Below are positions 11,897-62,800 of a stretch of 64,000 bases of DNA, in pieces. The stretch comes from Escherichia coli. Lineage in GTDB: Bacteria > Pseudomonadota > Gammaproteobacteria > Enterobacterales > Enterobacteriaceae. The notes under the pieces were generated by a model. It searched no databases. It was given only the letters and a program-made list of their open reading frames with translations, and was not told the origin of the DNA. The stretch lies in assembly GCF_001677475.2 (NCBI RefSeq), contig NZ_CP015229.1, one strand, 5' to 3'. Within the stretch, counting starts at the first letter, position 1; each line of letters opens with the position of its first letter. Made by a program: the position numbers and the translations under genes.

Positions 11897-11930
11897 TAAA
11901 AAAGGCGACATGCCAATGTGTCGCCTTTTT
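11897..11930. terminator. bidirectional intrinsic terminator (acrD / ypfM)
   Basis: A-tract, GC stem ggcgaca/tgtcgcc, then T-tract (aaaaaaggcgacatgccaatgtgtcgccttttt). Confidence 0.75.
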
Positions 11931-11990
11931 CAACTTTCCGATTAAGAACCTGCTCAGCGGGTTCTTGCTGTTTGTACTTTGTCTCAGGAA

Positions 11991-12050
11991 TTACTTACGA
12001 AGCATAACTTCGATAAAGTCTTTCCAGTTCCCCAGTTCACGTTCAATCAT
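11991..12050 (-). CDS. ypfM: 19-aa small protein YpfM
   Basis: Minus-strand ATG at 12050 preceded by AGAGAGG RBS; translation MIERELGNWKDFIEVMLRK then TAA; not in the ORF track because of size. Confidence 0.8.
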   Translation of the reverse strand: MIERELGNWKDFIEVMLRK

Positions 12051-12412
12051 AACAACCTCTCTTATAATTATGGGTATTCTACGGAAACAATATACCGTGG
12101 TGAAGCTAATTTACTCGATTGCTGCGATGACTACCTCCGGGGGACAAACCTTATGTAAATACTATGGTCCTGCGGTGATGATTTGTATGTGATACACAGC
12201 AACATTTCGAGATATTCATACGGCATCTAATACTTATTTAATTCTGGTTAAAATACAGACAGATAACAAGATGAATATTCTTAATGTTTACGTTAAAAAT
12301 GTTTAATATTATTTAATAGTTGTTAATTTGAATACTTCAATAATGTTATATTTCCTGATAATCATTTGCAGGCAAAATGTTTTCACTCTTAAATGAGTAT
12401 TTATTCTCATAA

Positions 12413-12787
<375 letters not shown>

Positions 12788-39979: not shown

Positions 39980-40073
39980 AGATACCTCAACCAGGATTTC
40001 ACAAAATCGCGAGAAGTTTACCACAGAATCCCATGATGTTTGAACCGGGCAGCAATACTGCCCGGTCGGTACA

Positions 40074-41363
40074 TTATTTGTCTGTTATATCCGCGTCTTC
40101 TGCGTCCAGCACCACTTCTTCAGGGCGCAGCACACTAATCAGTTTGAAGATCAAACTTAAGCCGATACCGACGATGGTCGCCAGCGCCATACCTTTCAAC
40201 TCCGCCGCGCCGATGTTTACCTTCGCGCCACTGACACCGATGATCAAAATCACGGAAGTCAGGATCAGGTTCTGTGCTTTGTTGTAATCCACTTTCGATT
40301 CGATCAAAACACGAATACCGGAAGCCCCGATGACACCATAAAGCAGCAGCGAAACGCCGCCCATCACCGGCAATGGGATCATCTGGATAGCAGCAGCCAG
40401 TTTACCGACGCAGGAAAGCAGGATAGCGAAAATCGCCGCCCCGCCGATAACCCAGGTACTGTAAACACGGGTGATCGCCATCACGCCAATGTTTTCCCCG
40501 TAGGTGGTGTTTGGCGTGGAGCCAAAGAAGCCGGAGATCACGGTCGACAAGCCGTTAGCAAACATCGAACGGTGCAGACCTGGATCGCGCAGCAGATCTT
40601 TTTTGACGATATTAGCCGTTACTACCAGGTGCCCTACGTGTTCGGCAATAACCACTAACGCCGCTGGCAGAATTGTCAGAATGGCAAACCACTCGAAGCG
40701 CGGCGTATAGAGGGTTGGCAGCGCAAACCAGTGAGCATTAATAATCGGCGTGGTATCGACAATTCCCATTGCGAAAGAGAGCGCGTAGCCCACCAGCACG
40801 CCAATTAAAATCGGGATAATTGCCAGGAAACCACGAAACAGCACGGAACCTAAAACCGTAACCGCCAGGGTGGTAATGGAGATGATGATGGTTTTGGAGT
40901 CTGGCGTTTGCCCTTCAGCCGGGAGTAAACCCGCCATACCGGCAGCTACGCCCGCCAGCTCCAGACCGATGACGGCAACGATTGCGCCCATTGCCGCAGG
41001 TGGAAACAGCACGTCCAGCCAGCCGGTCCCCGCTTTCTTCACGATAAAAGAAACCAGGCAGAACAGCACGCCGCACATAATAAAGCCGCCCAGCGCGACT
41101 TCATACCCCAACGGCAACAGTAACAATACCGGTGAAATAAAGGCAAAGCTGGAACCAAGATAAGCCGGAATTTTCCCTTTACAGATGAAGAGATACAGCA
41201 GCGTTCCAATACCGTTAAATAACAGTACAGTCGCCGGGTTAATATGAAATAAGACGGGCACCAGGACGGTTGCACCAAACATGGCGAACAAATGTTGCAA
41301 ACTAAGCGGGATTGTCTGTAAAAGTGGCGGTCTTTCACTCACCCCGATAGCACGGCGCGTCAT
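40074..41363 (-). CDS. uraA: uracil:H+ symporter
   Basis: ORF 40074..41405 trimmed to 429 aa ([15 protein letters not shown]...); NCS2-family membrane protein. Confidence 0.93.
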
Positions 41364-41402
41364 AGTATTATCCTCTGTATTATGTGTTATAGGCGCTTTA
41401 CT

Positions 41403-41431
41403 CAAAAAAAAGCCGACTCTTAAAGTCGGCT
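41403..41431 (-). terminator. intrinsic terminator/attenuator between upp and uraA
   Basis: On minus strand: aaagccgactttaagagtcggctttttttt directly after the upp stop. Confidence 0.75.
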
Positions 41432-41448
41432 TTAATTATTTTTATTCT

Positions 41449-42075
41449 TTATTTCGTACCAAAGATTTTGTCACCGGCATCGCCGAGGCCCGGAATAATG
41501 TATCCGTGCTCGTTCAGTCCCTGGTCAATCGATGCAGTATACAGTTCGACGTCCGGGTGCGCTTTTTCCAGCGCAGCGATACCTTCTGGCGCAGCTACCA
41601 GCACCAGAACTTTGATGCTGCTGCAGCCCGCTTTTTTCAGCAGGTCGATGGTCGCGATAACGGAACCACCGGTTGCCAGCATTGGGTCAACGATCAGCGC
41701 CATACGCTCATCGATGTTAGAAACCAGTTTCTGGAAGTACGGTACCGGCTCCAGCGTTTCTTCATTACGGTACATACCGACGACGCTGATACGCGCGCTC
41801 GGAACGTTTTCCAGCACACCGTCCATCATCCCCAGACCCGCACGCAGAATTGGCACAACGGTAATTTTCTTACCTTTGATCTGGTCGATTTCTACCGGGC
41901 CGTTCCAGCCTTCGATAGTTACTTTTTCCGTTTCGAGGTCGGCGGTCGCTTCGTAAGTCAGCAGGCTACCCACTTCGGAAGCGAGTTCGCGAAAGCGCTT
42001 GGTGCTGATATCTTGCTCACGCATCAGTCCCAGCTTGTGTTTGACGAGTGGGTGTTTGACTTCCACGATCTTCAT
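41449..42075 (-). CDS. upp: uracil phosphoribosyltransferase
   Basis: ORF 41449..42102 trimmed to 208 aa ([14 protein letters not shown]...); RBS GGAG. Confidence 0.94.
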
Positions 42076-42100
42076 ACTCTTTCTCCTTTGAGGGGCAGCC

Positions 42101-42114
42101 ACAAAAAAAATCGA
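42101..42114 (-). promoter_or_regulatory. upp initially transcribed U-tract (UTP-sensitive reiterative transcription site)
   Basis: Minus-strand GATTTTTTTTG lies ~25 nt upstream of the upp RBS. Confidence 0.55.
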
Positions 42115-42319
42115 CGGATTATACCTCCTTTCTTCAAGGCGGCAATATTATTTTCGTTGACTTTAGTCAAAATGATAACGGTTTGAGATAAAGTTATTTT
42201 ATATTCAAATGGTTATGGGAGAAGATTATTCCATCCGAAAACGATCCTTTGCCCTGGTACAAGTATTCTTTCGCCGCGCGCCTGGGGAAAAGACGTGCAA
42301 AAAGGTTGTGTAAAGCAGT

Positions 42320-42335
42320 CTCGCAAACGTTTGCT
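42320..42335 (+). promoter_or_regulatory. PurR operator (pur box) of purMN
   Basis: tcgcaaacgtttgctt, close match to pur box consensus, ~65 bp upstream of purM start. Confidence 0.75.
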
Positions 42336-42381
42336 TTCCCTGTTAGAATTGCGCCGAATTTTATTTTTCTACCGCAAGTAA

Positions 42382-43436
<1,055 letters not shown>

Positions 43437-43437
<1 letters not shown>

Positions 43438-44075
43438 TGAATATTGTGGTGCTTATTTCCGGCAACGGAAGTAATTTACAGGCAATTATTGACGCCTGTA
43501 AAACCAACAAAATTAAAGGCACCGTACGGGCAGTTTTCAGCAATAAGGCCGACGCGTTCGGCCTTGAACGCGCCCGCCAGGCGGGTATTGCAACGCATAC
43601 GCTCATCGCCAGCGCGTTTGACAGTCGTGAAGCCTATGACCGGGAGTTGATTCATGAAATCGACATGTACGCACCCGATGTGGTCGTGCTGGCTGGTTTT
43701 ATGCGCATTCTCAGCCCGGCGTTTGTCTCCCACTATGCCGGGCGTTTGCTGAACATTCACCCTTCTCTGCTGCCGAAATATCCCGGATTACACACCCATC
43801 GTCAGGCGCTGGAAAATGGCGATGAAGAGCACGGTACATCGGTGCATTTCGTCACCGATGAACTGGACGGTGGCCCGGTTATTTTACAGGCGAAAGTCCC
43901 GGTATTTGCTGGTGATACGGAAGATGACATTACCGCCCGCGTGCAAACCCAGGAACACGCTATTTATCCACTGGTGATTAGCTGGTTTGCCGATGGTCGT
44001 CTGAAAATGCACGAAAACGCCGCGTGGCTGGATGGTCAACGTCTGCCGCCGCAGGGCTACGCTGCCGACGAGTAA
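43437..44075 (+). CDS. purN: GAR transformylase
   Basis: 212-aa ORF; ATG overlaps purM stop by 1 nt. Confidence 0.94.
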
Positions 44076-44246
44076 TACCCCCGTAATTAAAGCGCCAGCT
44101 CTGCCGCTGGCGTTTTTCAATTCACCTGTAAATCGCAAGCTCCAGCAGTTTTTTTCCCCCTTTTCTGGCATAGTTGGACATCTGCCAATATTGCTCGCCA
44201 TAATATCCAGGCAGTGTCCCGTGAATAAAACGGAGTAAAAGTGGTA

Positions 44247-47859
<3,613 letters not shown>

Positions 47860-47865
47860 TACTTT

Positions 47866-47892
47866 GCGGGCCGACGAGAAATGTCGGCCCGC
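47866..47892. terminator. GC-rich stem-loop between convergent ppx and pdeF
   Basis: gcgggccgacgagaaatgtcggcccgc inverted repeat; weak T-tract. Confidence 0.55.
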
Positions 47893-47897
47893 ATTAT

Positions 47898-50141
47898 TCA
47901 GGCACTTTCGCGAATGGGTTCGATTTCATTCAACGTATCAATTAACGGCTGCGGCTTACCAATAAGATAACCCTGCATATAATCGATCCCCAAAGAGAGC
48001 ACCGCCTCGCGGATCTCTTCGTTTTCAACGTACTCTGCCACTACCAGCATTTTCTTCATTCGCGCCAGGTGGCAAATCGATGCCACTATCTGATAATCCA
48101 GACTATTTGACACAATATTGCGGATAAAACTGCCGTCAATTTTAAGCAGATCGGCATTCACATTTTTAAGCCGCGCATAGCTGGCGTAGCCGGTGCCGAA
48201 ATCATCAATCGCAATCTGGCAGCCTAATTCCTGAAGATGCTGCAAGGTGATTTGCGCCTGCTTAACATTGGTCAGAGCATTACTTTCGGTGACTTCAAAA
48301 ATAAGTTGCCACGCTTCAATCTGATATTTAGCCAGCAACTGACTGACTTCAACAGGAAAACGAGCCTGACATACCGAGGTTGGAGACAGATTAATAGCAA
48401 AACGGTGAGCGGGCATCTTCGCTCTGTTTTCAGCCATAAATTGCAGCGTATGCTCAATGACCCACATGTCGATACTCGACGATAAACCAAATTCGTGCGC
48501 GACCGGCAAGAAGCTATCGGGGCTGATCAATTCATCATTCTCACCTTTCATGCGCAGAAGAATTTCATGGTAAACATCACCACGCATACCGGTAATCGGC
48601 TGGGCCATCAGGAAAAAATGGTTGTGTTCCAGCGCCTGCTGTAGTCGATTCATCATCGCGACTTTATCTTTCAATTCGCGTTGCAAATACATTGCCCCGC
48701 GACGCTGCATATTTTCCGGGGCGTTGGTCACGATGGAAAGTTCGGCGACCGTATTTAGCTCTCCCAGCAGCAGGTAGATATGATTCACTGGCGAGCGCAC
48801 ATAGCAGTAACTGACGCCAATCTGCGGTTGCATCGGCATGCCATCCCAAAAGAAACGAAATTGCTTGAGATGGCTATCCAGTGCGGTAATGCGCTCCTGG
48901 TGCGATTCTGTATTCAGTCGCAGCGCGAGATCGTTACCCGAAAGCTGATAAACATCTTCACCCGGTTCCAGCAAGGGTGACAGCCAGTGAGAAAGTTTTT
49001 GCTTGTATTGAATCCGCAGCATGATGCCATAGTTCTTAACCAGCATTTCCATGCCAGGGATGCGTAAATAACAAAGCGCAGACCAGGGGGCATCACGCAA
49101 CGCGCGATTCAGGGCGCGAACATTTGGCAGATGAACCACCGGGTCCACATACGCAAGCCGCTGAATGCGTCTGACTACCGTTCTCTGACGGGTTGCCAGT
49201 ACAGCCATATAATTGACAATAAAAGAGAATACCAGATAACTGGAGGAGGTTATGGTCAGCTGCGTGGTATAGCCAGGATAAATGGGAATGTAATTTTGAT
49301 AGCTGTGGATGCTGATCATCAACACGACCGCCCAGAGCAGCGAAATCAGCTTATAACCATAGCGCATCGCTCCCCACATCATCAGGGGCAGCAATAATGA
49401 CAAGGTATAGTTGGTGCTAAAAATTGTGCTTTTTTCATTTAACGGCATGCATAACAGCAACAGTAAAGCACCTAATGCCAGTAGCCAGAGTGCGAACTCT
49501 TTTTTGGTGACTTTGACATCAACCTGCTGTTTTAATTGCGAATAATAGCTACGTAAATAAAATGGATTTCGCACTACCCGAATGATGAAGTAGCACAGCG
49601 GGACACCGATCAGATTACCCACCAGTAAGGCCTGATAATTGATTAAAGTCCCGAGGTTAAAAGGCATGACACCGACCAGATTTTCTCTACTCGCCAGTAA
49701 TCCTACAAATGCGGCAAACTGGAAAAGTATCAGAAACAGCGTTGCAGGAAACACAATCTGCCAGAATATACGCTGGGAAATTAAACGGGTATCACCATGT
49801 GAAACGTTGTTACGCCGGGGAGTAAAGACCCTGTAACCGCCCCAACAGAGAATGATAATGATAATAAAATTAGCCGTTAACGAGAGCGTTTCGTAAAAAC
49901 CCAGCTCTGAATATTTGCGGACAAAAATCCCTAAGGCGATCCCTGGCAATGCCGCCCAGCTGAAAAACATCATCATGCTGATCATCAGTGCCAGAGGCAG
50001 ATAAAAGAGAAAAACCTCACCGGAAGAAATATGCGCGAAAGTATTGATGTGGCCGAAAATGGGCAAGATTAAAGAAGGCAGGAACAGCGGAAGCCCCCAC
50101 CATTTATCACGTATTTTTATATAGGTTGCATTCAGTTTCAT
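47898..50141 (-). CDS. pdeF: c-di-GMP phosphodiesterase PdeF (MASE1 - degenerate GGDEF - EAL)
   Basis: 747-aa ORF; hydrophobic N-terminal half and C-terminal EAL domain (QPITGMRGDVYHEILLRM...). Confidence 0.92.
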   Translation of the reverse strand: MKLNATYIKIRDKWWGLPLFLPSLILPIFGHINTFAHISSGEVFLFYLPLALMISMMMFFSWAALPGIALGIFVRKYSELGFYETLSLTANFIIIIILCWGGYRVFTPRRNNVSHGDTRLISQRIFWQIVFPATLFLILFQFAAFVGLLASRENLVGVMPFNLGTLINYQALLVGNLIGVPLCYFIIRVVRNPFYLRSYYSQLKQQVDVKVTKKEFALWLLALGALLLLLCMPLNEKSTIFSTNYTLSLLLPLMMWGAMRYGYKLISLLWAVVLMISIHSYQNYIPIYPGYTTQLTITSSSYLVFSFIVNYMAVLATRQRTVVRRIQRLAYVDPVVHLPNVRALNRALRDAPWSALCYLRIPGMEMLVKNYGIMLRIQYKQKLSHWLSPLLEPGEDVYQLSGNDLALRLNTESHQERITALDSHLKQFRFFWDGMPMQPQIGVSYCYVRSPVNHIYLLLGELNTVAELSIVTNAPENMQRRGAMYLQRELKDKVAMMNRLQQALEHNHFFLMAQPITGMRGDVYHEILLRMKGENDELISPDSFLPVAHEFGLSSSIDMWVIEHTLQFMAENRAKMPAHRFAINLSPTSVCQARFPVEVSQLLAKYQIEAWQLIFEVTESNALTNVKQAQITLQHLQELGCQIAIDDFGTGYASYARLKNVNADLLKIDGSFIRNIVSNSLDYQIVASICHLARMKKMLVVAEYVENEEIREAVLSLGIDYMQGYLIGKPQPLIDTLNEIEPIRESA

Positions 50142-50268
50142 AGATGCTCAGCAGAATCCCCCACATCCTGAAGGAGGTGTATTCAGACAGGCATCCCACC
50201 TGACTTCGAATGATGATTATTCATCACTATAGAGAGCATTAATTCTAAGTGTCATATGAAAGTTCCAA

Positions 50269-50282
50269 TTGATATATATCAA
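50269..50282. promoter_or_regulatory. FNR binding site upstream of pdeF
   Basis: ttgatatatatcaa is a perfect TTGAT-N4-ATCAA palindrome ~130 bp upstream of the pdeF start codon. Confidence 0.7.
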
Positions 50283-50492
50283 ACAAAATAACCCTGATTA
50301 ATGAATTATTACGTTTATCATGTTAATTCATCATTATTACATCATCATTGTAAATAATTAAATTAACTTCCATAACATTAAAATATGTATCCACTGACGC
50401 TTTTTTACATAACGAAGAATTGACCATTTTGTCCTGTTGTGCCTTAATGTAAGTACCGTCCACTGCGTGGGACATACTTCAAGGAACCTTTT

Positions 50493-50684
50493 GTGAGTCA
50501 GGCAACCAGTATGCGAAAACGACACCGATTTAACAGTCGCATGACCCGTATCGTACTGCTCATCAGCTTTATCTTCTTCTTTGGCCGTTTTATCTACTCG
50601 TCCGTCGGTGCATGGCAGCACCATCAGAGCAAAAAAGAAGCTCAGCAATCCACACTCTCCGTCGAATCACCGGTACAACGTTAG
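50493..50684 (+). CDS. yfgG: 63-aa small membrane protein YfgG
   Basis: ORF encoding MSQATSMRKRHRFNSRMTRIVLLISFIFFFGRFIYSS... with one TM helix; flanked by very AT-rich DNA. Confidence 0.8.
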   Translation: MSQATSMRKRHRFNSRMTRIVLLISFIFFFGRFIYSSVGAWQHHQSKKEAQQSTLSVESPVQR

Positions 50685-50994
50685 CGGTTACCTTCTCCAC
50701 TTTCACAGAACATAACGGCACCTCGCTGTCGGATGCTTTTGCTCTTTGGGATTATCAAAGCGGCAGATATTCTTTCATCTTAAATTTTACGTCTTTGTCC
50801 TGACTGATGTTTATCCTGTTTGGCTGCGAAATAAATATAAAATTAATACATATGTTTTAATGATGTATTTTTATAAATTATTTTCCACGTGAATTTTAAT
50901 AAATTTAATCTATTCCTTTATACGCAATACATTTACTTTCCTCTTTTGATGATCTTAAATGTCTTATTTTTCGTAATGTGTATAACAAGGAATA

Positions 50995-51513
50995 GTGATG
51001 AAATTTAAAAAATGTCTTCTGCCTGTGGCAATGTTAGCGTCATTCACTCTGGCAGGATGCCAGTCAAATGCTGATGATCATGCCGCCGATGTTTATCAAA
51101 CCGATCAACTGAATACCAAACAAGAAACTAAAACCGTTAATATTATTTCCATTCTTCCCGCAAAAGTTGCCGTAGACAACTCCCAAAATAAACGAAACGC
51201 ACAAGCCTTCGGCGCGCTTATTGGTGCAGTCGCTGGCGGTGTAATCGGCCACAACGTGGGGTCTGGCAGCAATTCCGGAACGACGGCAGGTGCAGTTGGC
51301 GGCGGAGCTGTAGGCGCGGCAGCAGGTTCTATGGTGAATGATAAAACCTTAGTGGAAGGTGTTTCTCTAACGTATAAGGAAGGCACCAAAGTGTATACCT
51401 CCACCCAGGTGGGTAAAGAGTGCCAGTTTACGACAGGTTTAGCCGTTGTTATTACCACGACGTATAACGAAACGCGTATTCAGCCAAATACGAAATGTCC
51501 TGAAAAGAGCTAA
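50995..51513 (+). CDS. yfgH: outer-membrane lipoprotein YfgH (glycine-zipper)
   Basis: 172-aa ORF; lipobox LAGC; Gly-rich zipper GAVAGGVIGHNVGSGSNSGTTAGAVGGGAVGAAAGS. Confidence 0.88.
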   Translation: MMKFKKCLLPVAMLASFTLAGCQSNADDHAADVYQTDQLNTKQETKTVNIISILPAKVAVDNSQNKRNAQAFGALIGAVAGGVIGHNVGSGSNSGTTAGAVGGGAVGAAAGSMVNDKTLVEGVSLTYKEGTKVYTSTQVGKECQFTTGLAVVITTTYNETRIQPNTKCPEKS

Positions 51514-51528
51514 TGATCAGGAGGAGTC

Positions 51529-52068
51529 ATGAAGAAAGTTTTTCTTTGCGCCATCTTAGCCTCCTTAAGCTATCCGGCTATCGCCTCATCATTGCAGGAT
51601 CAACTCTCGGCTGTCGCAGAAGCGGAACAGCAAGGTAAAAATGAAGAGCAAAGGCAGCATGACGAATGGGTCGCGGAGCGCAACAGGGAAATCCAGCAAG
51701 AGAAGCAACGTCGCGCAAACGCCCAGGCCGCGGCTAATAAAAGAGCGGCAACGGCAGCGGCGAATAAGAAAGCTCGTCAGGATAAACTGGACGCCGAAGC
51801 CTCTGCGGACAAAAAACGCGATCAAAGTTATGAAGATGAGCTACGCAGCTTAGAGATTCAGAAACAAAAACTGGCGCTGGCAAAAGAAGAAGCCCGCGTT
51901 AAGCGAGAAAACGAATTTATCGATCAGGAACTGAAGCACAAAGCTGCGCAAACCGATGTGGTGCAATCTGAAGCTGACGCAAACAGGAATATGACTGAGG
52001 GCGGTCGAGATCTGATGAAAAGCGTGGGCAAAGCAGAAGAGAACAAATCGGACAGCTGGTTTAACTAA
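51529..52068 (+). CDS. yfgI: signal-peptide protein YfgI, highly charged predicted coiled coil
   Basis: 179-aa ORF; signal peptide then K/E/R/Q/A-rich low-complexity sequence. Confidence 0.88.
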   Translation: MKKVFLCAILASLSYPAIASSLQDQLSAVAEAEQQGKNEEQRQHDEWVAERNREIQQEKQRRANAQAAANKRAATAAANKKARQDKLDAEASADKKRDQSYEDELRSLEIQKQKLALAKEEARVKRENEFIDQELKHKAAQTDVVQSEADANRNMTEGGRDLMKSVGKAEENKSDSWFN

Positions 52069-52105
52069 GCGATGTCAGTAATTTCAAGCCTATGATTCGT
52101 GAGTA

Positions 52106-52140
52106 TAAAAAACCCTCTGTAGTAACAGAGGGTTTTGTTC
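52106..52140. terminator. bidirectional intrinsic terminator (yfgI / guaA)
   Basis: aaaaaaccctctgtagtaacagagggttttgtt: A-tract, stem, T-tract between convergent genes. Confidence 0.8.
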
Positions 52141-52160
52141 ATTCATAGTGCAGGGTCAAA

Positions 52161-53738
52161 TCATTCCCACTCAATAGTCGCTGGTGGCTTGCCGCTGATG
52201 TCATACACCACGCGGGAAATACCGTTCACTTCATTGATAATGCGGTTGGAAACGCGACCGAGGAAGTCATACGGCAGGTGCGCCCAGTGTGCGGTCATAA
52301 AGTCGATGGTTTCGACAGCACGCAGAGAAACAACCCAGTCATACTTACGACCATCGCCCATTACACCAACGGAACGTACCGGCAGGAAGACGGTGAACGC
52401 CTGGCTGACTTTGTCGTACAGGTCCGCTTTACGCAGTTCTTCAATAAAGATGGCGTCAGCACGGCGCAGCAGGTCGCAGTACTCTTTCTTCACTTCGCCC
52501 AGTACACGAACGCCGAGGCCTGGTCCCGGGAACGGGTGACGGTACAGCATGTCGTACGGCAGGCCCAGCTCCAGACCAATCTTACGCACTTCGTCTTTGA
52601 ACAGCTCTTTCAGCGGTTCAACCAGCCCCATCTTCATCTCTTTCGGCAGGCCGCCCACGTTGTGGTGAGATTTGATGACGTGTGCTTTACCGGTTGCAGA
52701 CGCCGCAGATTCGATAACGTCAGGGTAGATAGTACCCTGCGCCAGCCACTTCACGTCTTCCAGTTTCAGCGCTTCTTCATCGAATACTTCAACGAAAACG
52801 CGCCCGATGATTTTACGTTTTGCTTCCGGATCGTTTTCGCCAGCCAGCGCTGACAGGAAGCGATCTTCTGCCGGAACGTGAACAATATTGAGACCAAAGT
52901 GATCGCCAAACATATCCAGAACCTGCTCTGCTTCGTTGAGGCGCAGCAGGCCATTGTCGACGAATACGCAAGTCAGGTTTTTACCGATAGCGCGGTGCAG
53001 CAGCATTGCGGTTACGGAGGAATCCACACCACCAGAGAGGCCGAGGATGACTTTATCGTCGCCTACCTGCTCGCGGATGCGAGCTACAGCATCGTCGATA
53101 ATTTTCGCTGGCGTCCACAGGGCTTCACACTGGCAGATATCACGCACAAAACGCTCCAGCATGCGCATACCCTGGCGGGTGTGAGTCACTTCCGGGTGGA
53201 ACTGTACGCCATAGAAGCGTTTTTCTTCGTTAGCCATAATGGCAAACGGGCAGCTTTCGGTGCTGGCTACGGTGACGAAGTCGGACGGGATAGCGGTAAC
53301 TTTATCGCCGTGGCTCATCCAGACATCGAGCAGCGGTTTACCGTCTGCGGTCAGCGCATCTTCGATACCGCGAACCAGGGCGCTGTCGTTTACGACTTCA
53401 ACCTGCGCGTAGCCAAATTCACGTTCGTTAGAGGCTTCAACGTGACCGCCCAACTGCATTGCCATGGTCTGCATACCATAGCAAACGCCGAATACCGGTA
53501 CGCCTGCTTCAAAAACATACTGCGGCGCACGCGGGCTGTTTTCTTCGGTGGTGCTTTCCGGGCCGCCGGAAAGAATAATGCCGCTTGGATTGAAGTCACG
53601 AATTTGTGCTTCTGTCACATCCCATGCCCACAGTTCGCAGTAAACGCCCAGCTCACGCACGCGGCGCGCAACCAGTTGAGTATACTGGGAACCGAAGTCC
53701 AGAATGAGGATGCGATGCTTATGAATGTTTTCCGTCAT
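52161..53738 (-). CDS. guaA: GMP synthase (glutamine-hydrolysing)
   Basis: 525-aa ORF; class-I glutamine amidotransferase domain and ATP pyrophosphatase SGGVDSS motif. Confidence 0.95.
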
Positions 53739-53806
53739 TGACGCTTATTCCGAGGCAAGTGAAACAGATAATATAAATCGCCCGACATGAAGTCGGGCGA
53801 AGAGAA

Positions 53807-55273
53807 TCAGGAGCCCAGACGGTAGTTCGGGGACTCTTTAGTAATGGTCACGTCGTGAACGTGGCTTTCCTGAATGCCCGCACCGCTGATACGTACAAAC
53901 TCCGCTTTAGTACGCAGTTCGTCGATAGTACCACAGCCGGTCAGACCCATACAGGAGCGCAGGCCGCCCATCTGCTGGTGAATGATCTCTTTCAGGCGAC
54001 CTTTATAAGCTACGCGACCTTCGATACCTTCCGGCACCAGTTTGTCGGCTGCGTTATCGCTCTGGAAATAACGGTCAGAGGAACCTTTGGACATCGCGCC
54101 CAGGGAACCCATACCACGGTACGATTTGTAAGAACGGCCCTGGTAGAGTTCAATTTCACCCGGAGATTCTTCAGTACCCGCCAGCATGGAACCCACCATT
54201 ACCGCGCTTGCGCCAGCGGCGATAGCTTTGGCGATGTCACCGGAGAAGCGAATACCACCATCTGCGATAACCGGAATACCTGTGCCTTCCAGCGCTTCAA
54301 CTGCGTCAGCAACGGCAGTGATCTGCGGAACACCTACGCCAGTAACGATACGAGTCGTACAGATAGAACCAGGGCCGATACCGACTTTAACCGCGCTGCA
54401 ACCAGCTTCTGCCAGAGCGCGTGCACCTGCAGCTGTTGCCACGTTGCCGCCGATGATTTGCAGATCCGGATATTTAGCACGGGTTTCACGGATACGTTGC
54501 AGTACACCTTCTGAGTGACCGTGGGAGGAGTCTATCAGCAGAACGTCAACGCCTGCGGCAACCAGCGCATCAACACGCTCTTCGTTACCCGCACCTGCGC
54601 CAACCGCTGCACCAACACGCAGACGGCCTTGCTCGTCTTTACAGGCGTTCGGTTTACGTTCCGCTTTCTGGAAGTCTTTCACGGTGATCATGCCGATCAG
54701 GTGGAATTCGTCATCAACCACCAGCGCTTTTTCAACGCGTTTTTCGTGCATTTTTGCGAGCACAACTTCACGGGCTTCACCTTCACGCACGGTTACCAGA
54801 CGTTCTTTCGGCGTCATGTAAACGCTAACCGGCTGGCTCAGGTCGGTAACAAAACGCACGTCACGACCGGTGATAATACCCACCAGTTCGTTTTCTTCGG
54901 TAACGACCGGATAGCCCGCAAAACCGTTACGCTCGGTCAGTTCTTTCACTTCGCGCAGCGTCGTGGTTGGCAGAACAGTCTGCGGATCAGTCACCACACC
55001 AGATTCGTGTTTTTTCACACGGCGAACTTCTTCTGCCTGGCGTTCAATGGACATGTTTTTGTGGATAAAGCCGATACCGCCTTCCTGAGCCAGAGCAATA
55101 GCCAGGCGCGCTTCCGTTACGGTATCCATTGCTGCGGAAAGCATAGGTATATTCAGACGAATAGTTTTCGTCAGCTGGGTGCTGAGGTCAGCAGTATTCG
55201 GCAGAACAGTAGAGTGAGCAGGAACGAGGAGAACGTCGTCAAACGTCAGAGCTTCTTTAGCGATACGTAGCAT
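53807..55273 (-). CDS. guaB: IMP dehydrogenase
   Basis: ORF 53807..55342 trimmed to 488 aa ([21 protein letters not shown]...); CBS pair and catalytic IGPGSICTT motif. Confidence 0.95.
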
Positions 55274-55404
55274 GGGCAATATCTCGACCAGAGTGGTTAA
55301 TAAATATTGCCGCGGCATTATACAGAGCGTAACCGATTGCATCTACCCCTTTTTGCAAAAAATGCTTGCTATCCCCGAAGGGCGGGTTACTATCGACTGA
55401 ATAA

Positions 55405-56811
<1,407 letters not shown>

Positions 56812-56878
56812 GCCGATATGATGCGCCAGCATCGCATCCGGCACTGGCTCCCAGGCCACGCCAGATGCGCCATGCTGG
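56812..56878. repeat. REP-like palindromic element at xseA 3' junction
   Basis: gccgatatgatgcgccagcatcgcatccggcac... fills the gap between the xseA stop and the stop of the convergent giant gene. Confidence 0.6.
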
Positions 56879-59800
56879 TTACTGGAAGCAGGTAACCAGA
56901 CCCGGTTTATTCATTAGCGTGATACTACAATCCTGTGCTCCAGTGCCTTCGTCCATCCCACACTGTTGAGAGGACAAATAAGGAAAACTTGGTGAAGACG
57001 GCCATCCCAGTGAATTAAAAACAGTATGCAACAACTCTAATTCATTGTATGTCGGTGCATTTTCTATGCTGCCACACTGCCTTGCGATATCCCATTTACT
57101 GGCATCAATGATATGTGCAGAAGCCCAGTTTTCGTAGTTAATAAACGGTGAGGATACGGGATTAGCCCCGGACGGCAATTCCGTCGTTAACAACGGTCGA
57201 TGTAGCGATTTACCATTCACCACTACCGTGTCTGCCATATGTCCCCAAAAGTGCGCCGAGGAAACATTCGGGCTGGTTGGCACCGTAAAAATAGCGTCCA
57301 GCGTGTCTGTCGCGGAAGCGTAATTAGCCAGAGTAACCGTCAGTGGCGTTTTATAACCAGGGGTATTATCCTGGCGGAGCGTAAAACTTGCCGTCCCATC
57401 AGCGCCTGTCATGCCACTAATGGTATTACCGCTTTCACTCAGCGTAATAGCCGAACCAGATAACGGCTGAACGATGAGATCGTCCATCGCCACCACATCA
57501 CCATACAACGTTGCCCCAGCGTTACGCGGCGATGCCTCACCACGTTTCAAAGTAAACTCCACATTCGGCACCGTATTCCCGGCGCTGTCTTTCACCGTCA
57601 CGGTAACGGGCATGGCTTCGCCTTTTTTCACTTTCGCCGCCTGGCTGTCAGCATCAAACGCTGTTGAGGTCAGTGTGACGCTGGAAACCGTCGCGCGCGC
57701 AGACACCAGGCACGCCTGATAAGCGGTATTAACATTCAATGTCGTCAAGCCATTTTTCATATCGAGCGACTGATTTTTGCCATCTGTAGTCTTATCCTGC
57801 GCCCACCAGCCATAATAAACTGACCAGCCAGTTTCCGTCGTAAAGGTGTTATTGGGATAACGTTGATACAGTGACTTCATATCGCTGAGCAACGGTTGTC
57901 GTGCTTCTTCACAGGGGCTGAGGCTGGCATTTGCTTTGGTTGTTGCTGAGAAATAGGGCCAGTCCTCATTATTGTTACTGATTTTATTCACCCCGGAGGT
58001 CGATGGCAGCTCTTTCCACAATTTCGGTCGTTCAAAGACGGTTCCATTTGCCGCTGTCACCGTTTCTGGCATATGGCCCCAGTAGTTGGCATCCGGAGTG
58101 TCAGGGCTGGTGACCACGGTAAATATCAGGTCCAGGTTTGACGTGATCTGCGGATCTTGTGCAAGCGAGACCGTAAACGGCGTTGCCAGGCCAGTGGTGT
58201 TGTTTTGCGTAACATTGAACGTCACAGTGCCATCACTGCCGGTAAAGCCAAGCCATTTTGCCGTATCCTGAGCAAAGGAAATGCTGGCTGCTGTCGGTGT
58301 GACGACATTTACAATAAGATCATCTGCCGAAGTAGATGAGGGCTTATTCCCTGTACGGTTTTTCGACTGCGCCCGCTGAAGCGTCACGCTCTCACCACTC
58401 ACCAGGTTGCCATTTTGGTCTTTTACTGTCACGACTAACGGGATTGTCTCGCCCTTTTTCGCCGATGCCGAAGGTGTGCCACCGTTGCTGGCGGTTTTCG
58501 TCTCATCAAATGCGGCTGACGTGAGAGTCACGCTTGATGATAAAGCGTGAGGCTGCGTCAGACAAAGCATCAGAGCAGACGGATAGAGAGAAGATGAAGG
58601 TTGTCCTGTTTTCAGGTTAATGACCTGATAATACCAGGACGTGCCACTAAGAGTAAGCTCATAAGTCCACCAGTTTCCGGCTGTTGTCGGCACCCCCAGA
58701 TCTGTCGTTATCGCCCCGTTAGGGTGATCGTTATAAAGCCCCTGCAACTCGCTGAGGCGCGGTTGATATTCCAGTGGGCAATCTGCCGTCGCTTTTTGAG
58801 TGTTGGATATATATGACCATGTCTCATTATTACCATTTACCGAGCTCCCCGAAGTTGCTTCCGCTGCCAGTAATGGGCGCTTGAAGGTCACGCCTGCCGA
58901 GCTGGTAAACGTTTCCGGCATATGGCCCCAGTATTTCGCTTTTGGCGAATCCGGGCTGGTTATCACCGTGAAAATGACATCCAGCGTGGCGCTTTTTGAG
59001 GTGTCGCGCATCAATGTTGCAGTGAGCGGGGTTGCGAACCCATAACTGCCGTTTTGGCTGACCTCAAACGTAGCTTTACCATCGCTTCCTGTCTTCAGAA
59101 GAGCCTGCGTCCCATCCTCATACAAGATTGACGTTACCCCGGTAGGCTCCAAAGGCACGATGGTAAGATCATCTGCAGAGGCATTGTACGCAGCTTTAGC
59201 GCGATTCAGCGCAGTCCCACGTTTAAGGTTAAAGCTGGCACCTGGCAGTGGATTGCCTGCGCTATCTCGCACCGTAACCGTCATCGGGATAACCTCTCCC
59301 TTCTTCGCCGTTGCACTGGGCCTGCCATCATTGCTCGCCGTTTTCGTTGCATCCTCTGCCGTTGAGGTCATCTCAATAGAAGCCGCCTCTGGATGAGGGT
59401 TTACCAGGCACAGCATTAATGCCGAGGTGGTTGAAGACGCTCTTCCACTTGATCCATTTAACAGAGAAATATATTGATCGTACCACTTACCCGCATATGC
59501 CACCACGTCGTAAGCCCACCAGTAGCTATTCACTGGAATACCCAGATCGGTCTTTATCGCACGACTTGGATGTTCGTCGTACAATGCCTGGAGTTCGCTT
59601 AACAGCGGTTGATAATGTACATCGCACCCGCTTTTATCTGCATCCCCCTTTGTTGCCGATTTCAACAATCCCCATGTTTCATTGTCTTCTATGACTCCAG
59701 ATTCTGACGATGTTTCGCTCTTGAGTAGTGGACGCCTGAAGGCAATCCCGGAACGCGTAGTGAACGTTTCCGCCATATGCCCCCAGTAACTTGCCAGGGG

Positions 59801-62800
59801 AGTATCCGGGCTGGTTATCACAGTAAACATCACCGGTAATTTGTTGGATTCCAGGCTCGACTGATAGGCCTGAGCGTACACATTGGTTACCAGGCCTATA
59901 GAATCATCCTGCTTTACCGTAAACGTGGCCGTTCCATCCGCGCCCGTCACCGCATAAAGCAAGATTGATGAACTATCCATTCTTGCCGACGTCCCCGCGG
60001 CGTTGATTACGGTGATAGTTCTGTTCAACATCAGTGTATTCTGGCGATTTGTCGATCCTTCACGTTTGAGAATAAACGGAACATTTGGTACGACATTTCC
60101 CTGCGCATCTTTGGTCACCACGCGAATCACCGCGTCGTCACCTTTTTTCCGTTTTAGTGCGCTGAGGGTTTCGTCAACTTTGACAAATTGTGTCGAATCG
60201 TTCGCTTCGACAATAATTTGGCTGGTCATCGCCACTGGGGTAGCCCGACAGCTTAGCAGACCTATACTGCTTGGCATGATCTCCGATTCATAACCAGTCT
60301 TCAACGAAACCGCTTTAAAATTAAAGGCTTGAGTATAATAGGCGACTGCCGTACTGGAGATATAGGCACGTGATACAGGCCATCCCGTAACGTCATGTAT
60401 TGGCGTGTAACCTTCATCGGCATACAATGACTCAAGTTCATTGTCAGCCGGGACATATCCTGCACCGCAACCATTTACAGATGTGTTGTTCGACTGGTCC
60501 GGCGAGAACAGTGACCATTCCTCTCCATCTTCCTGAAAATAGTTTCGACTAGCTGTAACGGTAAGCTCATCTTGCAATAACGGTCTTTTATAAATAAGCC
60601 CGCCAGCACCGGTCATCGTTTCGGCCATATGCCCCCAGAATTTTGCTTTAGGGGTATCGGGGCTGGTTATCACCGTAAAGACCACCGGAAGCATTGATTT
60701 TACGTTATTATCTGTATCCAGCATGGCGGTCAGTTCGGTTTTTAAACCTGTGGTATTGTCCTGTTTCAGTGCAAGTGTTGTCGTACCATCTGCGCCGGTA
60801 ACGCCATAAATCAGTGCTGTTGTTGAGGAAAAATTACTCTGCGTATTACCCCAGGCATCCGTCACGATGAGCGCGCCTGCTGTCACCGTTGTAGACGCAT
60901 TTGCCCGATTGACGCTAAGGTTACGTTTAAGCGTAAACGCGGTATTTCCCACCGGGTTACCCTGCGCATCTTTAGTGGTCACGCGAACCACGACTTCTTC
61001 CCCTTTTTTCGCTTTGACAACATTATTCGTACTGTCAAATTTTGTAGGGTCCGCAGCCTCAAGAACGATTTGGCTTGCCTTAACGATCGGCGTCGTCTGG
61101 CAGGTAAGCAGTTCTTTTGTGGCCGATGGAATTATCGAACTGGTACCTGAACTGAGATTGACGGCCTTGAAGTCACGCTGTTCCAGACTACTGCTGCCTG
61201 TCGTGCTGGTAAGGTAACTTGAGGCGACGGGCCAGCCCTGAACCGTTTTCATCGCATTGCCGCGGTTAGCTTCATACAATGACTCCAGCCCAACCTGAGA
61301 GGGAACATATTCACTACCGCAACCATTAGAGGATGTGCTTGTCGCCTGAGTTTGGGTAAATTGCGCCCAGTCCTCATTCTCTTCTGCAATCGCTGTTCGA
61401 CCCGACGTACTGGATAACTCTTTCAACAATAATGGGCGCTTAAAGACCGTTCCATCCGCAGCCGTCACCGTTTCCGGCATATGTCCCCACATTTTCGCTT
61501 TATTGCTGTCCGGGCTGGTGACAACGGTAAAAATGGTATCGAGGGTCGCTTTTTTCGTTGTGTCTGAATAGAGCGCGGCGGTCAGCGACGTTTTCGTGCC
61601 ATGGGTATCCGGGCGGGTAATAGTGAGAATTTTAGTGCCATCGCTGCCGGCCATCGCGCTGTATGCTGCGGCGGTATCATTGAGCGAAGTTTCATCCGCC
61701 AGGCCACTATTGATCACAACCGGCGCAACCAGCGCATCACCGCTACCGGCAATGTGTTTTTCGTTTGATCGGGTATAACCATCGCCACGCTTCAGGGTAA
61801 AAGGCATATCACCCAATGGATTGCCCTGAGCATCTTTTACCGTCACCTTCACCTGTAGCGTTTCGCCTTTTTTCAGCTTCGCCGCATTTGCTGCCGCGTT
61901 CCACTGCGCCGGGTCCACCACTTCCAGCGTAATGCTGTTGGCAGGATTGTTAGCCGTCGTCAGGCAACTGACATAAACCGCCGTGCTACCGCCAACGGTC
62001 CGCGCGCCATCGTTGAGGGCTATGGTGTAGTAATGCGGCACCTGATCCGCGGGCGAACTGCTCCAGTAGGGCTGACGCTGCGTTGGCCAACCGTGTACCG
62101 TTTGAACGGCGTTACCGCTGTAAGCATCATAGAGCGCGTTAAGCTGGGAACGGCGTGGGAGCATATTGGCACCACAGCCACCTTTACTGGTGCTGGAAGT
62201 GTTGGCCTGGCTAACGCGCGACCACACTTCGTTATTTTCCGTTAATGTGCCGTCCGGGCTGGACACTTCCGCAGCCAGCCGGGATCGGGCAAAGGTTAAT
62301 GCATCGACGGTAATCGTCTCATCCATATGCCCCCACATCTGCGCGCCAACCGCATCCGGACTGGTGAGCGTAGTGAAAATCACATTGTAATTAACAGTAT
62401 TGGGAATATAGGAGTTTACAGGCGCAATATTCAGCGGCGTCGCTAAGCCCACACCTTGCGGTTGCTTAATTTCCACAGTAGCAAAACCCTGCGCATCCGT
62501 AGTACCTGCATAGACTAAAGACGGTTGCGATGTTCCGTAGAGCGTGCCATTCATCTCGATTGCGCCGCGGGTTGGATCATCGAAACCCGTGGTCTGCCCC
62601 TGACGATTTTTCCCCATATCTTTCGTGATGGTGAACGCGGTATACGGCACGGGCGCATTATTCAAGGCATTAAAGGTGCGTACCGTCATGGTAATCGTTT
62701 CACCCACTTTCGCCTGCGCTCTGCTGCTTGTGGAAACATCATGATCGGTGGTCGCAGCAATCTGGGCGACCATCTCATTGCCCGAACAAGAAAGGTAGTT

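Follow-up and report, generated by a model that had tools for sequence, protein, structure and literature searches.

Two unrelated AT-rich regions most probably flank yfgG in this Escherichia coli genome, a reading to which we give a probability of roughly 70%: on the left an ancestral control region, and on the right the DNA upstream of an exchangeable, presumably H-NS-silenced yfgH-yfgI cassette. The initial annotation had joined yfgG and both spacers into one mini-island. These boundaries were wrong, since yfgG is ancestral and the variable unit spans 50685-52160.

Organization of the locus

The window (the whole stretch of 64,000 nucleotides that was analysed) represents the E. coli ppk-ppx-pdeF-yfgG-yfgH-yfgI-guaA-guaB region. 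The relevant features are the following, with the basis of each call in brackets:

47898..50141, minus strand: pdeF (yfgF), cyclic-di-GMP phosphodiesterase with MASE1 and EAL domains (ORF, RefSeq, Pfam)
50142..50492, no strand: spacer 1, divergent pdeF/yfgG regulatory region (GC content, conservation of length and footprints)
50226..50255, minus strand: second predicted sigma-70-like promoter, ATGACA-18-TATAGT, facing pdeF (pattern scan, 10/12 matches)
50242..50247, minus strand: pdeF -10 element TAGAAT (same as the -10 in the passage of PMC3718329 that quotes it)
50269..50282, no strand: FNR box TTGATATATATCAA of the class II FNR-dependent pdeF promoter (pattern, literature)
50323..50475, minus strand: 50-aa ORF WP_000017552.1, hypothetical protein according to PGAP (annotation)
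50420..50448, plus strand: yfgG promoter (hexamers from a genomic SELEX study)
50493..50684, plus strand: yfgG, 63-aa DUF2633 small membrane protein (Pfam, synteny)
50685..50994, no strand: spacer 2, AT-rich region upstream of yfgH-yfgI (GC content, A/T runs)
50995..51513, plus strand: yfgH, SlyB-like glycine-zipper outer-membrane lipoprotein, first cassette gene (Pfam, structure match)
51529..52068, plus strand: yfgI, DUF5384 protein with signal peptide, second cassette gene (Pfam)
52069..52160, no strand: spacer 3, convergent yfgI/guaA spacer, right edge of the cassette (fold, identity drop)
52109-52136, both strands: bidirectional terminator hairpin within spacer 3 (folding)
52161..53738, minus strand: guaA (GMP synthase), conserved right flank (ORF, annotation)

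The left flank, pdeF, is transcribed away from spacer 1. yfgI starts 16 bases past the end of yfgH, and the hairpin behind it folds with -22.8 kcal/mol on the plus strand (z = -7.8) and -18.2 kcal/mol on the minus strand (z = -6.1). The 50-aa ORF WP_000017552.1 is probably not a gene: it overlaps the yfgG promoter, matched no Pfam or NCBIfam family, and its matches beyond E. coli are all partial and weak.

The three small proteins had been described as a 63-aa membrane peptide, a glycine-zipper lipoprotein and a secreted protein, in agreement with the Pfam matches, the lipobox and the signal peptide found here. Calling them poorly characterised, as the initial annotation did, is partly outdated. 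YfgG, which matches DUF2633 with 97.6 bits (Pfam cut-off 25), has been linked to nickel and cobalt tolerance, and YfgH has been described as a stress-induced stabiliser of the outer membrane.

YfgH carries the lipobox LAGC in its translation and a glycine zipper 2TM domain (PF05433, 33.2 bits, cut-off 24.2). It aligns nearly full length with SlyB, likewise a glycine-zipper lipoprotein (structure 7OJF, E = 4e-10 over residues 8-163). However, SlyB lacks a DUF5384 partner, whereas YfgH is paired with YfgI, and according to a preprint SlyB and YfgH fail to cross-complement. YfgH also scores against the surface-exclusion lipoprotein TraT (PF05818, 28.1 bits; TraT chains in the PDB, E = 0.013-0.14). 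Since the Pfam score stays below the cut-off of 31, YfgH is not a member of the TraT family, and the likeness is a resemblance only. YfgI matches DUF5384 with 208.2 bits (cut-off 25), and we found no relative of it with a solved structure. The DUF5384 family is small, with 258 clusters and named members almost all from Enterobacteriaceae.

Base composition

Both spacers are AT-rich compared with their surroundings, as had been proposed: the GC content is 33.9% in spacer 1 and 30.6% in spacer 2, against 46.6% in pdeF, 54.4% in guaA and 52.1% in the window as a whole. A sliding GC plot, suggested as a check, bears this out. Windows of 300 bp with less than 33% GC occur at three places in the 64 kb, namely both spacers and 12041-12580. 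Among the 20 intergenic regions of at least 60 bp (mean 43.7%), spacer 2 has the lowest and spacer 1 the third-lowest GC content. Relative to intergenic regions of at least 150 bp (mean 40.7%, sd 6.0), spacer 1 lies about 1.1 sd and spacer 2 about 1.7 sd below the mean, which places them in the AT-rich tail, yet not at an extreme.

The long A/T runs noted earlier are real. The A/T string quoted as an example lies at 50844-50886 and has 14% GC. Of the four longest runs of pure A/T in the window, three (20, 19 and 18 nt) fall within 50829-50909.

In the coding sequences, yfgH has the lowest GC3 of the 47 genes (41.6%, z = -3.2), and yfgI is marginal (50.6%, z = -1.4). GC3 is normal for yfgG (z = -0.6) and for pdeF (z = -0.8), although the overall GC content of pdeF is the lowest of the 47. 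The compositionally anomalous and variable unit is 50685-52160, consisting of spacer 2, yfgH, yfgI and the terminator.

The pdeF/yfgG control region

The AT-richness of spacer 1 is due to its role as a dense divergent regulatory region and not to a foreign origin. Its length varies from 312 to 366 bp across the 18 homologous spacers measured, and an alignment of 16 sequences showed that the footprints of both promoters are kept: the FNR box, the pdeF -10, and the -35 and extended -10 of yfgG. The FNR box TTGATATATATCAA is the sole exact TTGAT-N4-ATCAA in the 64 kb (0.10 expected), and almost every locus with pdeF has a TTGAY-N4-RTCAA box in the corresponding spacer. PMC3718329, in the passage quoting Lacey et al. 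2010, gives the FNR box of pdeF (yfgF) as centred at -41.5. With this spacing, transcription of pdeF would start near 50234. Here the centre of the box lies 31 bp from the centre of the TAGAAT -10, which fits the published architecture, and most of the 16 spacers in the alignment retain the -10, in the form ATTCTA or ATTTTA. The promoter is thus the published class II FNR-dependent one, with no difference. It accounts for part of spacer 1, but not for its AT-rich centre. The available main text of the FNR ChIP-seq study by Myers 2013 does not mention these genes.

For the second predicted promoter facing pdeF, the genomic SELEX study gives identical hexamers (ATGACA, TATAGT) for yfgF. The yfgG promoter consists of a -35 TTGACC (50420-50425), a TG (50440-50441) and a -10 CTTAAT (50443-50448), that is, an extended -10 element with C at -13. 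When the 16 sequences are aligned, AATTGACC and TGCCTTAAT stand out as conserved blocks. The published yfgG transcription start, K-12 position 2627275, lies 38 bp before the start codon and corresponds to about 50455 here. Binding of RNA polymerase to the spacer is reported in vitro for the sigma-70 form and in vivo for the sigmaS form (ChIP-seq peak). In one gallium-selected population, an IS5 insertion in this spacer reached a frequency of 0.5.

A hairpin in the yfgG 5' UTR appears to covary across genera. The E. coli version folds no more stably than shuffled sequence (z = +0.95), and we did not retain it as a feature.

Synteny and divergence

We surveyed synteny in 80 species, anchored on GuaA (82-99% protein identity). 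yfgG lies near guaA in 24 of the 80 species, mostly together with pdeF-ppx-ppk, and yfgH with yfgI was found in this set only in E. albertii. yfgG adjoins pdeF-ppx-ppk in Enterobacter, Citrobacter, Kluyvera, Leclercia, Cedecea, Siccibacter, Pluralibacter and Salmonella; in Pantoea it stands beside ppx. Judged from these comparisons, yfgG, spacer 1 and pdeF are vertically inherited and syntenic across Enterobacteriaceae, and not members of an islet.

Across species, the distance between guaA and yfgG varies from 119 bp to 9.4 kb, with some junctions empty and the cargo unrelated between genera. Elsewhere it holds an MFS transporter, NapC/NirT cytochrome and molybdopterin oxidoreductase genes, an MscS-type channel, Sel1-repeat, CHAT, GNAT and RelE-family proteins, or a LysR regulator. 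At the same locus, yfgHI was found in Escherichia, Salmonella bongori, S. enterica (decayed), C. portucalensis and Pseudocitrobacter cyperus; it is present in some Salmonella and Citrobacter and absent or decayed in others. A YfgH homologue accompanied yfgI at every chromosomal, phage and plasmid locus that we inspected, the yfgH of S. enterica being a remnant. Of the proposed yfgGHI group, then, yfgG proved to be conserved across the family, while yfgH-yfgI is patchy.

Between E. coli and E. albertii, nucleotide identity is 92.0% in guaA and 94.3% in yfgG, but 77.5% in yfgH, 77.4% in yfgI, 59.8% in spacer 3 and 54.5% in spacer 2, which is essentially unalignable. The divergence steps up sharply at the stop codons of yfgG and guaA. 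Across the five chromosomal copies compared (E. coli, E. albertii, C. portucalensis, S. bongori and P. cyperus), identities range from 81 to 89% for YfgH and from 70 to 85% for YfgI, while PdeF is 61-75% identical to that of E. coli in the four comparators for which it was available. By sequence identity, the E. albertii proteins (85%) are no closer to E. coli than those of the distant P. cyperus (84-85%), whose PdeF is 61% identical. As pairwise identities, not a tree reconciliation, the YfgH and YfgI values are flat and show no relation to how distant the hosts are.

Within E. coli the region belongs to the core genome: 5401 of 5426 complete genomes cover 80% or more of it. Spacer 2 shows comparatively high diversity, 717 genomes having only 90-95% identity. 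Taken together, yfgH-yfgI and the AT-rich region upstream behave as lineage-restricted, exchangeable DNA.

It is very improbable that the whole of 50142-51000, yfgG with both spacers, is a single horizontally acquired, H-NS-silenced mini-island. The AT-richness of both spacers, the low overall GC content of pdeF, and H-NS binding at the yfgF/yfgG spacer in vitro and at yfgH in vivo would agree with such an island. However, the synteny and footprint data already contradict it: yfgG keeps its place beside pdeF-ppx-ppk in many genera and beside ppx in Pantoea, and the length and regulatory footprints of spacer 1 are kept across genera. The normal GC3 of yfgG and pdeF also speaks against it, as does the 94% identity of yfgG to E. 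albertii, against 54-77% for the block that begins at its stop codon. The proposed horizontal acquisition is therefore supported from 50685 onward, by patchy distribution, GC3, divergence and mobile copies, and not supported for 50142-50684, on synteny and footprints.

Spacer 2 and the expression of yfgHI

Two matches of at least 8/10 to TCGATAAATT, which we take to be the published high-affinity motif of H-NS, fall in spacer 2 (0.33 expected) and none in spacer 1; alone, this is weak evidence. Low GC upstream of yfgH (29-33%) recurs in phage P7 and in E. albertii, S. bongori and C. portucalensis. From ChAP-seq of K-12, SE11 and SE15, Higashi et al. 2016 (PLoS Genet, PMC4720273, S2 Table) report H-NS binding for yfgH and the yfgHI transcription unit, where the signal overlaps the coding sequence of yfgH in one or more of the three strains. 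In the column for predicted horizontally transferred genes, the same table codes yfgH as 'L/N', which presumably means that both Lawrence-Ochman and Nakamura predicted transfer. In vitro, a genomic SELEX study found H-NS bound to the yfgF/yfgG spacer, but the same study found H-NS on 36% of divergent spacers carrying constitutive promoters. H-NS binding, as the initial annotation had suspected, is thus published for spacer 1 in vitro and for yfgH in vivo. In the searchable literature we found no report of de-repression of yfgH, yfgI, yfgG or pdeF in an hns mutant.

A preprint estimates about 7 copies of YfgH per cell in LB, i.e. an almost silent gene, and reports strong induction by depletion of LpxC, LptD or BamA. 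This literature answers the earlier suggestion to look at expression under envelope stress. Low basal expression together with stress induction is consistent with silencing, although it is not proof. Spacer 2 is likely the region where H-NS nucleates and silences, and H-NS binding is presumably the cause of the silence of yfgHI.

The promoter of yfgH would lie in spacer 2. A scan of the spacer for the sigma-70 consensus gave no match on the plus strand, and boxes for sigmaE, CpxR, PhoP and RcsB, checked by eye, were nothing convincing. The best candidate found by eye, TTTACT-17-TTAAAT at 50933-50961 (8/12), is too weak to assert, and an FNR-type box TTGATgatcTTAAA at 50946-50959 (8/10 positions) is too near the start codon. 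A SELEX peak for FlhDC has been reported within the spacer. Behind yfgG, the lone terminator candidate is weak and folds no better than shuffled sequence (z = -0.7), so some of the transcription of yfgHI could start at the yfgG promoter and read through.

It is also very doubtful that spacer 2 conceals a functional element missed by annotation, for instance a small RNA or a small protein. A stretch of 310 bp without a plus-strand sigma-70 consensus promoter leaves room for one, and the spacer does contain small ORFs of 44-63 aa and palindromic A/T segments. However, an Rfam scan of 49800-52400 at a permissive threshold gave no match at the family threshold (the lone match was a eukaryotic lncRNA model, E = 0.83, far under the cut-off). 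The 5' part of the spacer folds no better than shuffled sequence (z = -0.7), and the failure to align even with E. albertii argues against any conserved RNA or ORF.

Mobile relatives and signs of insertion

Homologues of the pair occur on mobile elements. In phage P7, upf50.5 is 69% identical to YfgH and upf50.0 is 47.5% identical to YfgI, in the same order, lipoprotein then DUF5384. They are accessory, moron-like genes of P1-family phage-plasmids, with the immunity region (c4-icd-ant) on one side and the late operon on the other. The upstream region in P7 is of similar kind (about 280 bp, 30.6% GC), but it cannot be aligned with the E. coli spacer. A YfgI homologue was found in 200 PLSDB records. 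One large plasmid with yfgHI homologues that we inspected is IncY P1-like, and small mobilizable (ColE1-type) plasmids also carry the pair.

In other E. coli strains, the yfgI/guaA spacer has received prophage TL-2011b or a VPA1262-family gene. We found no tRNA gene in 40000-60000, no direct or inverted repeat of at least 8 nt common to both cassette edges, and no integrase-like ORF at the cassette in the ORF list. A repeat search of 50100-51050 returned only short two-copy A/T-rich matches at chance level. Lacking integrase, tRNA gene and flanking direct repeats, the cassette gives no indication of a recent site-specific insertion.

Origin of the cassette

The preferred reading, two unrelated AT-rich regions of which the right one belongs to an exchangeable cassette, would account for these observations as follows. 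Spacer 1 is an old divergent control region, housing the FNR promoter of pdeF and the yfgG promoter, with an AT-rich centre that can bind H-NS in vitro. The yfgH-yfgI envelope cassette occupies the variable yfgG-guaA junction, which it would have entered in an ancestor of the Escherichia/Salmonella/Citrobacter group; later it would have been lost, decayed or exchanged between lineages, and related copies travel on P7-type phage-plasmids and small ColE1-type plasmids. The timing and direction of transfer are inferred. H-NS would nucleate on the long A/T tracts of spacer 2 and spread into yfgH, a spread that would keep yfgHI almost silent in ordinary growth. Damage to the outer membrane would activate or counter-silence a weak yfgHI promoter through some regulator.

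The most serious alternative involves no horizontal transfer. The spacers would be ordinary AT-rich promoter DNA, yfgHI an old vertical pair that is often lost, and the mobile copies chromosome-derived; the fast evolution of yfgHI would follow from weak expression and H-NS binding, in line with the finding of Higashi 2016 (PMC4720273) that genes bound by H-NS evolve more rapidly. We consider it unlikely, though it deserves to be taken seriously. Five genera or species have the cassette at one and the same locus; att-like repeats, integrase genes and tRNA genes are absent; the spacers are only 1.1-1.7 sd below the intergenic mean; and YfgI is 79% identical to its Citrobacter counterpart, similar to the 75% of PdeF. 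Much of the pattern would follow from a single ancient presence, repeated losses and rapid evolution, with no need for later exchange. However, such a history does not readily accommodate the outlying GC3 of yfgH, the step in divergence exactly at the cassette edges, or E. albertii proteins that differ from E. coli as much as the P. cyperus ones do, despite the 61% identity of PdeF in the latter. Moreover, the junction clearly turns over, with cargo differing by genus, and the pair is demonstrably carried by mobile elements.

The cassette resembles the H-NS-bound, anciently acquired core genes described in PMC4720273 (xenogeneic silencing of the Navarre type). Like these, yfgH has an AT-rich upstream region and low GC3, is found in nearly all E. 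coli while being more diverse than its flanks, and is almost silent in LB, yet inducible. It differs in that yfgHI is tiny (about 1.5 kb, two genes) and has no mobility genes or att sites.

A more far-reaching idea, which we put forward tentatively and think unlikely, is that yfgH-yfgI is a domesticated mobile envelope module, silenced by H-NS and released by outer-membrane stress, and that yfgG-guaA is a standing recombination hotspot for cargo swapping. If so, the function of the mobile pair would be to reshape or seal the outer membrane, for instance in exclusion or in protection against envelope attack, a role that would fit the weak resemblance to TraT.

Significance

The locus is ordinary and nearly all of it has been documented: the genes, the FNR promoter, the sigmaS/sigma-70 promoter of yfgG, H-NS binding and the transferred-gene label of yfgH are already published. 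The significance beyond a tidy annotation is small and lies in three modest additions. The boundary is corrected, with a variable, compositionally odd unit at 50685-52160 and ancestral yfgG and spacer 1; the guaA-yfgG junction emerges as a hotspot that turns over in Enterobacteriaceae, and E. coli still gains insertions between yfgI and guaA; and yfgHI homologues are found on P7-type phage-plasmids and small plasmids. This could be of use to groups that study YfgH as an outer-membrane stress factor, as it suggests YfgI as a partner and H-NS as a silencer, and suggests the phage and plasmid homologues of yfgHI as candidates for related functions.

Base composition of the locus

ORF calls and a comparison with 5,426 complete E. 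coli genomes identified ppk, ppx, pdeF (yfgF, minus strand), yfgG, yfgH, yfgI, guaA and guaB at 44-55 kb of the window. The 2 kb from 50100 to 52100 have a match in 5,425 of the 5,426 genomes and are covered to at least 80% in 5,401. Being present in nearly all genomes, this is core E. coli DNA.

The initial annotation had described 50142-51000, including yfgG, as an AT-rich mini-island whose composition resembled that of H-NS-silenced, horizontally acquired DNA. It was right about the composition of the two spacers: spacer 1 (50142-50492, between pdeF and yfgG) has 33.9% GC and spacer 2 (50685-50994, between yfgG and yfgH) 30.6%, compared with 52.1% for the whole window, though both values lie inside the intergenic range, at its AT-rich end. 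A crude gene call (longest non-overlapping ORFs) left 20 intergenic regions, among which spacer 2 ranked lowest in GC and spacer 1 third-lowest. They fall 1.7 and 1.1 sd, respectively, below the mean of the intergenic regions of at least 150 bp (40.7%, sd 6.0). Spacer 2 also holds three of the window's four longest A/T-only runs; the A/T string quoted in the annotation is found at 50844-50886. Windows of 300 bp with less than 33% GC occur in just three places in the 64 kb, namely the two spacers and 12041-12580. The third AT-rich spot, in the acrD/ypfM/yffB region, has 33.8% GC over 538 bp (11893-12430), and the ypfM/yffB spacer is also marked as H-NS-bound (Shimada 2014).

Spacer 1 is an old regulatory region and yfgG an ancestral gene

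We used GuaA as an anchor to collect 80 species genomes with 10-kb flanks and located the window proteins in them. In this sample, yfgG adjoins pdeF-ppx-ppk in Enterobacter, Citrobacter, Kluyvera, Leclercia, Cedecea, Siccibacter and Pluralibacter, and in Pantoea it adjoins ppx. The 18 pdeF-yfgG spacers that were measured are 312-366 bp long, most with a GC content clearly below that of the flanking genes. An alignment of 16 of these spacers revealed the following footprints.

Conserved elements of spacer 1 (window coordinates)
50184-50204, conserved block of 21 nt in the pdeF 5' UTR, CAGACAGGCATCCCACCTGAC
50242-50247, pdeF -10 element, ATTCTA on the plus strand
50269-50282, FNR box, TTGATATATATCAA
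50418-50425, AATTGACC, which includes the yfgG -35 element
50440-50448, TGCCTTAAT, which includes the extended -10 element of yfgG

TTGATATATATCAA is the sole exact TTGAT-N4-ATCAA in the window (0.1 expected), and a TTGAY-N4-RTCAA box was found again in the homologous spacer of nearly all pdeF-carrying loci. The box and the -10 element match the published yfgF promoter, which is class II and FNR-dependent, with the box at -41.5 and a -10 of TAGAAT (PMC3718329). For yfgG, genomic SELEX gave the hexamers TTGACC-17-CTTAAT (PMC3946193), and the published transcription start, at about 50455 in the window, sits beneath an RNA polymerase-sigmaS ChIP-seq peak (PMC4447067). The gene itself has an ordinary GC3 (z = -0.6) and is 94.3% identical to its E. 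albertii counterpart at the nucleotide level. The synteny across genera, the kept spacer length, the footprints and these two properties of yfgG all speak against a foreign origin; spacer 1 is an ancient regulatory region.

Some further features of this region were observed. The block CAGACAGGCATCCCACCTGAC, kept across the 16 species, contains an inverted repeat CAGG...CCTG. A 50-aa PGAP 'hypothetical protein' (WP_000017552.1; 50323-50475, minus strand) overlaps the yfgG promoter; it had no match among Pfam and NCBIfam families, shows little conservation beyond E. coli and is probably an artefact of gene calling in AT-rich sequence. The 5' end of the transcript of yfgG carries a small GC-rich hairpin (50457-50473, plus strand) with apparent covariation of one pair between genera (CCCA...TGGG and CCCG...CGGG); its stability in E. 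coli is no better than that of shuffled sequence (z = +0.95). In five Pantoea/Erwinia loci (L028, L032, L034, L036, L045), a yfgG (DUF2633) homologue lies about 120-150 bp upstream of mgtE in the same orientation (for example L032:7188-7424 and L032:5635-7068, minus strand). The channel MgtE, which passes divalent cations, has 476-478 aa in these loci. Given this adjacency and the nickel and cobalt tolerance phenotype published for YfgG, the protein may modulate a magnesium, cobalt or nickel transporter.

The anomalous unit begins at the yfgG stop codon

Nucleotide identity with E. albertii is 92% for guaA and guaB and 94% for yfgG, and drops to 54.5% in spacer 2, 77.5% in yfgH, 77.4% in yfgI and 59.8% in the yfgI/guaA spacer. 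This step bounds the divergent block by the stop codons of yfgG and guaA (50685-52160). Within it, yfgH has the lowest GC3 (41.6%, z = -3.2) and yfgI the third-lowest (z = -1.4) among the 47 genes called in the window. With low GC3, divergence and a patchy distribution, the mini-island interpretation holds for the yfgH-yfgI pair (yfgHI) and fails for yfgG and spacer 1.

Compared with a K-12-like strain (L001), 47100-55100 is 99.1-99.5% identical from pdeF to yfgG and 96.5-98.0% from spacer 2 through guaB. This drop suggests that a recombination breakpoint within the species lies close to the yfgG stop codon.

The guaA-yfgG junction is a variable site

In the 80-species sample, E. albertii alone has yfgH and yfgI. 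The guaA-yfgG gap varies in size, from 119 bp in Cedecea and 216 bp in Siccibacter (both empty sites with just the guaA terminator) to 9.4 kb, and its cargo is unlike from genus to genus. It includes genes for an MFS transporter, a NapC/NirT cytochrome, molybdopterin oxidoreductases, an MscS-type channel, Sel1-repeat, CHAT, GNAT and RelE-family proteins, a LysR regulator and MgtE. The yfgI/guaA site is still active in E. coli. In strain VCSW5 a large VPA1262-family gene (L002 5185-8001) follows yfgI, where guaA comes directly in the window, and in an O103:H25 strain prophage TL-2011b lies between the two genes. The 'complete genome' record of this phage (L092, NC_019445.1) contains host DNA (a pdeF fragment, yfgG, yfgH and yfgI) and so shows that the phage integrated between these two genes. 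A strong bidirectional hairpin at 52109-52136, predicted by RNA folding, would terminate both yfgI and guaA.

A YfgI search returned 258 protein clusters, those named by organism being almost all Enterobacteriaceae: E. coli, E. marmotae, E. albertii, Pseudocitrobacter cyperus, Citrobacter portucalensis, S. bongori, some S. enterica and Enterobacter hormaechei. S. bongori, P. cyperus and C. portucalensis have the pair at the yfgG-guaA junction, the last with an additional MscS-type channel gene. The S. enterica cassette is decayed; in one genome (L095 6635-7486) yfgH is a remnant (34% coverage) and yfgI is truncated to 161 aa. This agrees with a published account in which srgIL, the S. Typhi orthologues, include a pseudogene and Typhimurium has no copy (PMC11619404). 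Full-coverage E. coli YfgI clusters differ in length (160-194 aa, mostly 170-179), for which indels in the Ala/Lys-rich central part could be the reason.

Among five chromosomal copies, pairwise identity is 81-89% for YfgH and 70-85% for YfgI. Both proteins are 85% identical to E. coli in E. albertii and 84% in P. cyperus, whose PdeF is only 61% identical. On these comparisons, yfgHI identities do not follow host relatedness.

Mobile copies of yfgHI

Phage P7 carries the pair as upf50.5 (69% identical to YfgH) and upf50.0 (47.5% to YfgI), between the c4-icd-ant immunity region and the late sit operon. Its record (L093, NC_050152.1) itself notes their similarity to E. coli proteins, and further P1-family phage records have the same pair. 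In PLSDB, 200 records contain a YfgI homologue; they are mostly non-mobilizable plasmids, those listed being mostly of 80-150 kb, and the one large plasmid that we inspected was IncY with P1-type genes. The pair also occurs on mobilizable plasmids and contigs of 5-7.5 kb, one typed ColRNAI (76% and 62-68% identity). The RefSeq name 'DNA methyltransferase' for the YfgH homologue in both the P7 and TL-2011b records looks like a misannotation.

The DNA upstream of yfgH has 29-33% GC in P7 and in all the chromosomal contexts, and these sequences are not alignable. The AT-richness therefore looks like a maintained feature of the yfgH promoter region and more than a leftover from the donor. In P7 we noticed an FNR/CRP-like palindrome, TTGATATAAGTCAA (L093 4398-4411, same position in L090), some 65 bp upstream of upf50.5, with no convincing -10 element at class II spacing.

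H-NS binding and expression

Binding of H-NS is documented by genomic SELEX for the yfgF/yfgG spacer (PMC3946193) and by ChAP-seq for yfgH and the yfgHI transcription unit (Higashi et al. 2016, S2 Table); from this we infer silencing of these genes. In the SELEX study, 36% of the divergent spacers that have constitutive promoters contained H-NS sites, so the site in spacer 1 is not specific to foreign DNA. Higashi et al. code yfgH as 'L/N' in their transferred-gene column, capitals that probably stand for positive predictions by two methods, those of Lawrence-Ochman and of Nakamura. According to a 2025 preprint, the YfgH protein is an outer-membrane lipoprotein with an estimated ~7 copies per cell in LB, strongly induced on depletion of LpxC, LptD or BamA. 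SdiA regulates the S. Typhi orthologues of yfgHI; an E. coli yfgHI fusion gave no response (PMC11619404). A weak FlhDC SELEX peak is reported at spacer 2.

IS insertions are a classic route to relief of H-NS repression. An IS5 insertion in the yfgF/yfgG spacer, which reached a frequency of 0.5 in one gallium-selected population, may be connected with such relief.

On what we take to be the likeliest mechanism, spacer 1 holds two divergent promoters with conserved core elements. FNR switches pdeF on under anaerobic conditions, the yfgG promoter is bound by RNA polymerase carrying sigma-70 (in vitro) or sigmaS (in vivo), and the AT-rich middle can bind H-NS, which would modulate both. The long A/T tracts of spacer 2 would serve as an H-NS nucleation site, from which a filament would run into the low-GC3 yfgH. 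A consensus scan of spacer 2 found no good sigma-70 consensus at the yfgH promoter, which is therefore probably activator-dependent; it would be turned on by outer-membrane stress.

No element of the locus lacks a precedent, and most have been described at the locus itself: the FNR promoter, the sigmaS/sigma-70 yfgG promoter, H-NS binding, the transferred-gene prediction, the YfgG nickel/cobalt phenotype and the function of YfgH. To these we add a corrected boundary of the variable unit, evidence for the guaA-yfgG junction as a cross-genus hotspot, and a link of yfgHI to small plasmids.
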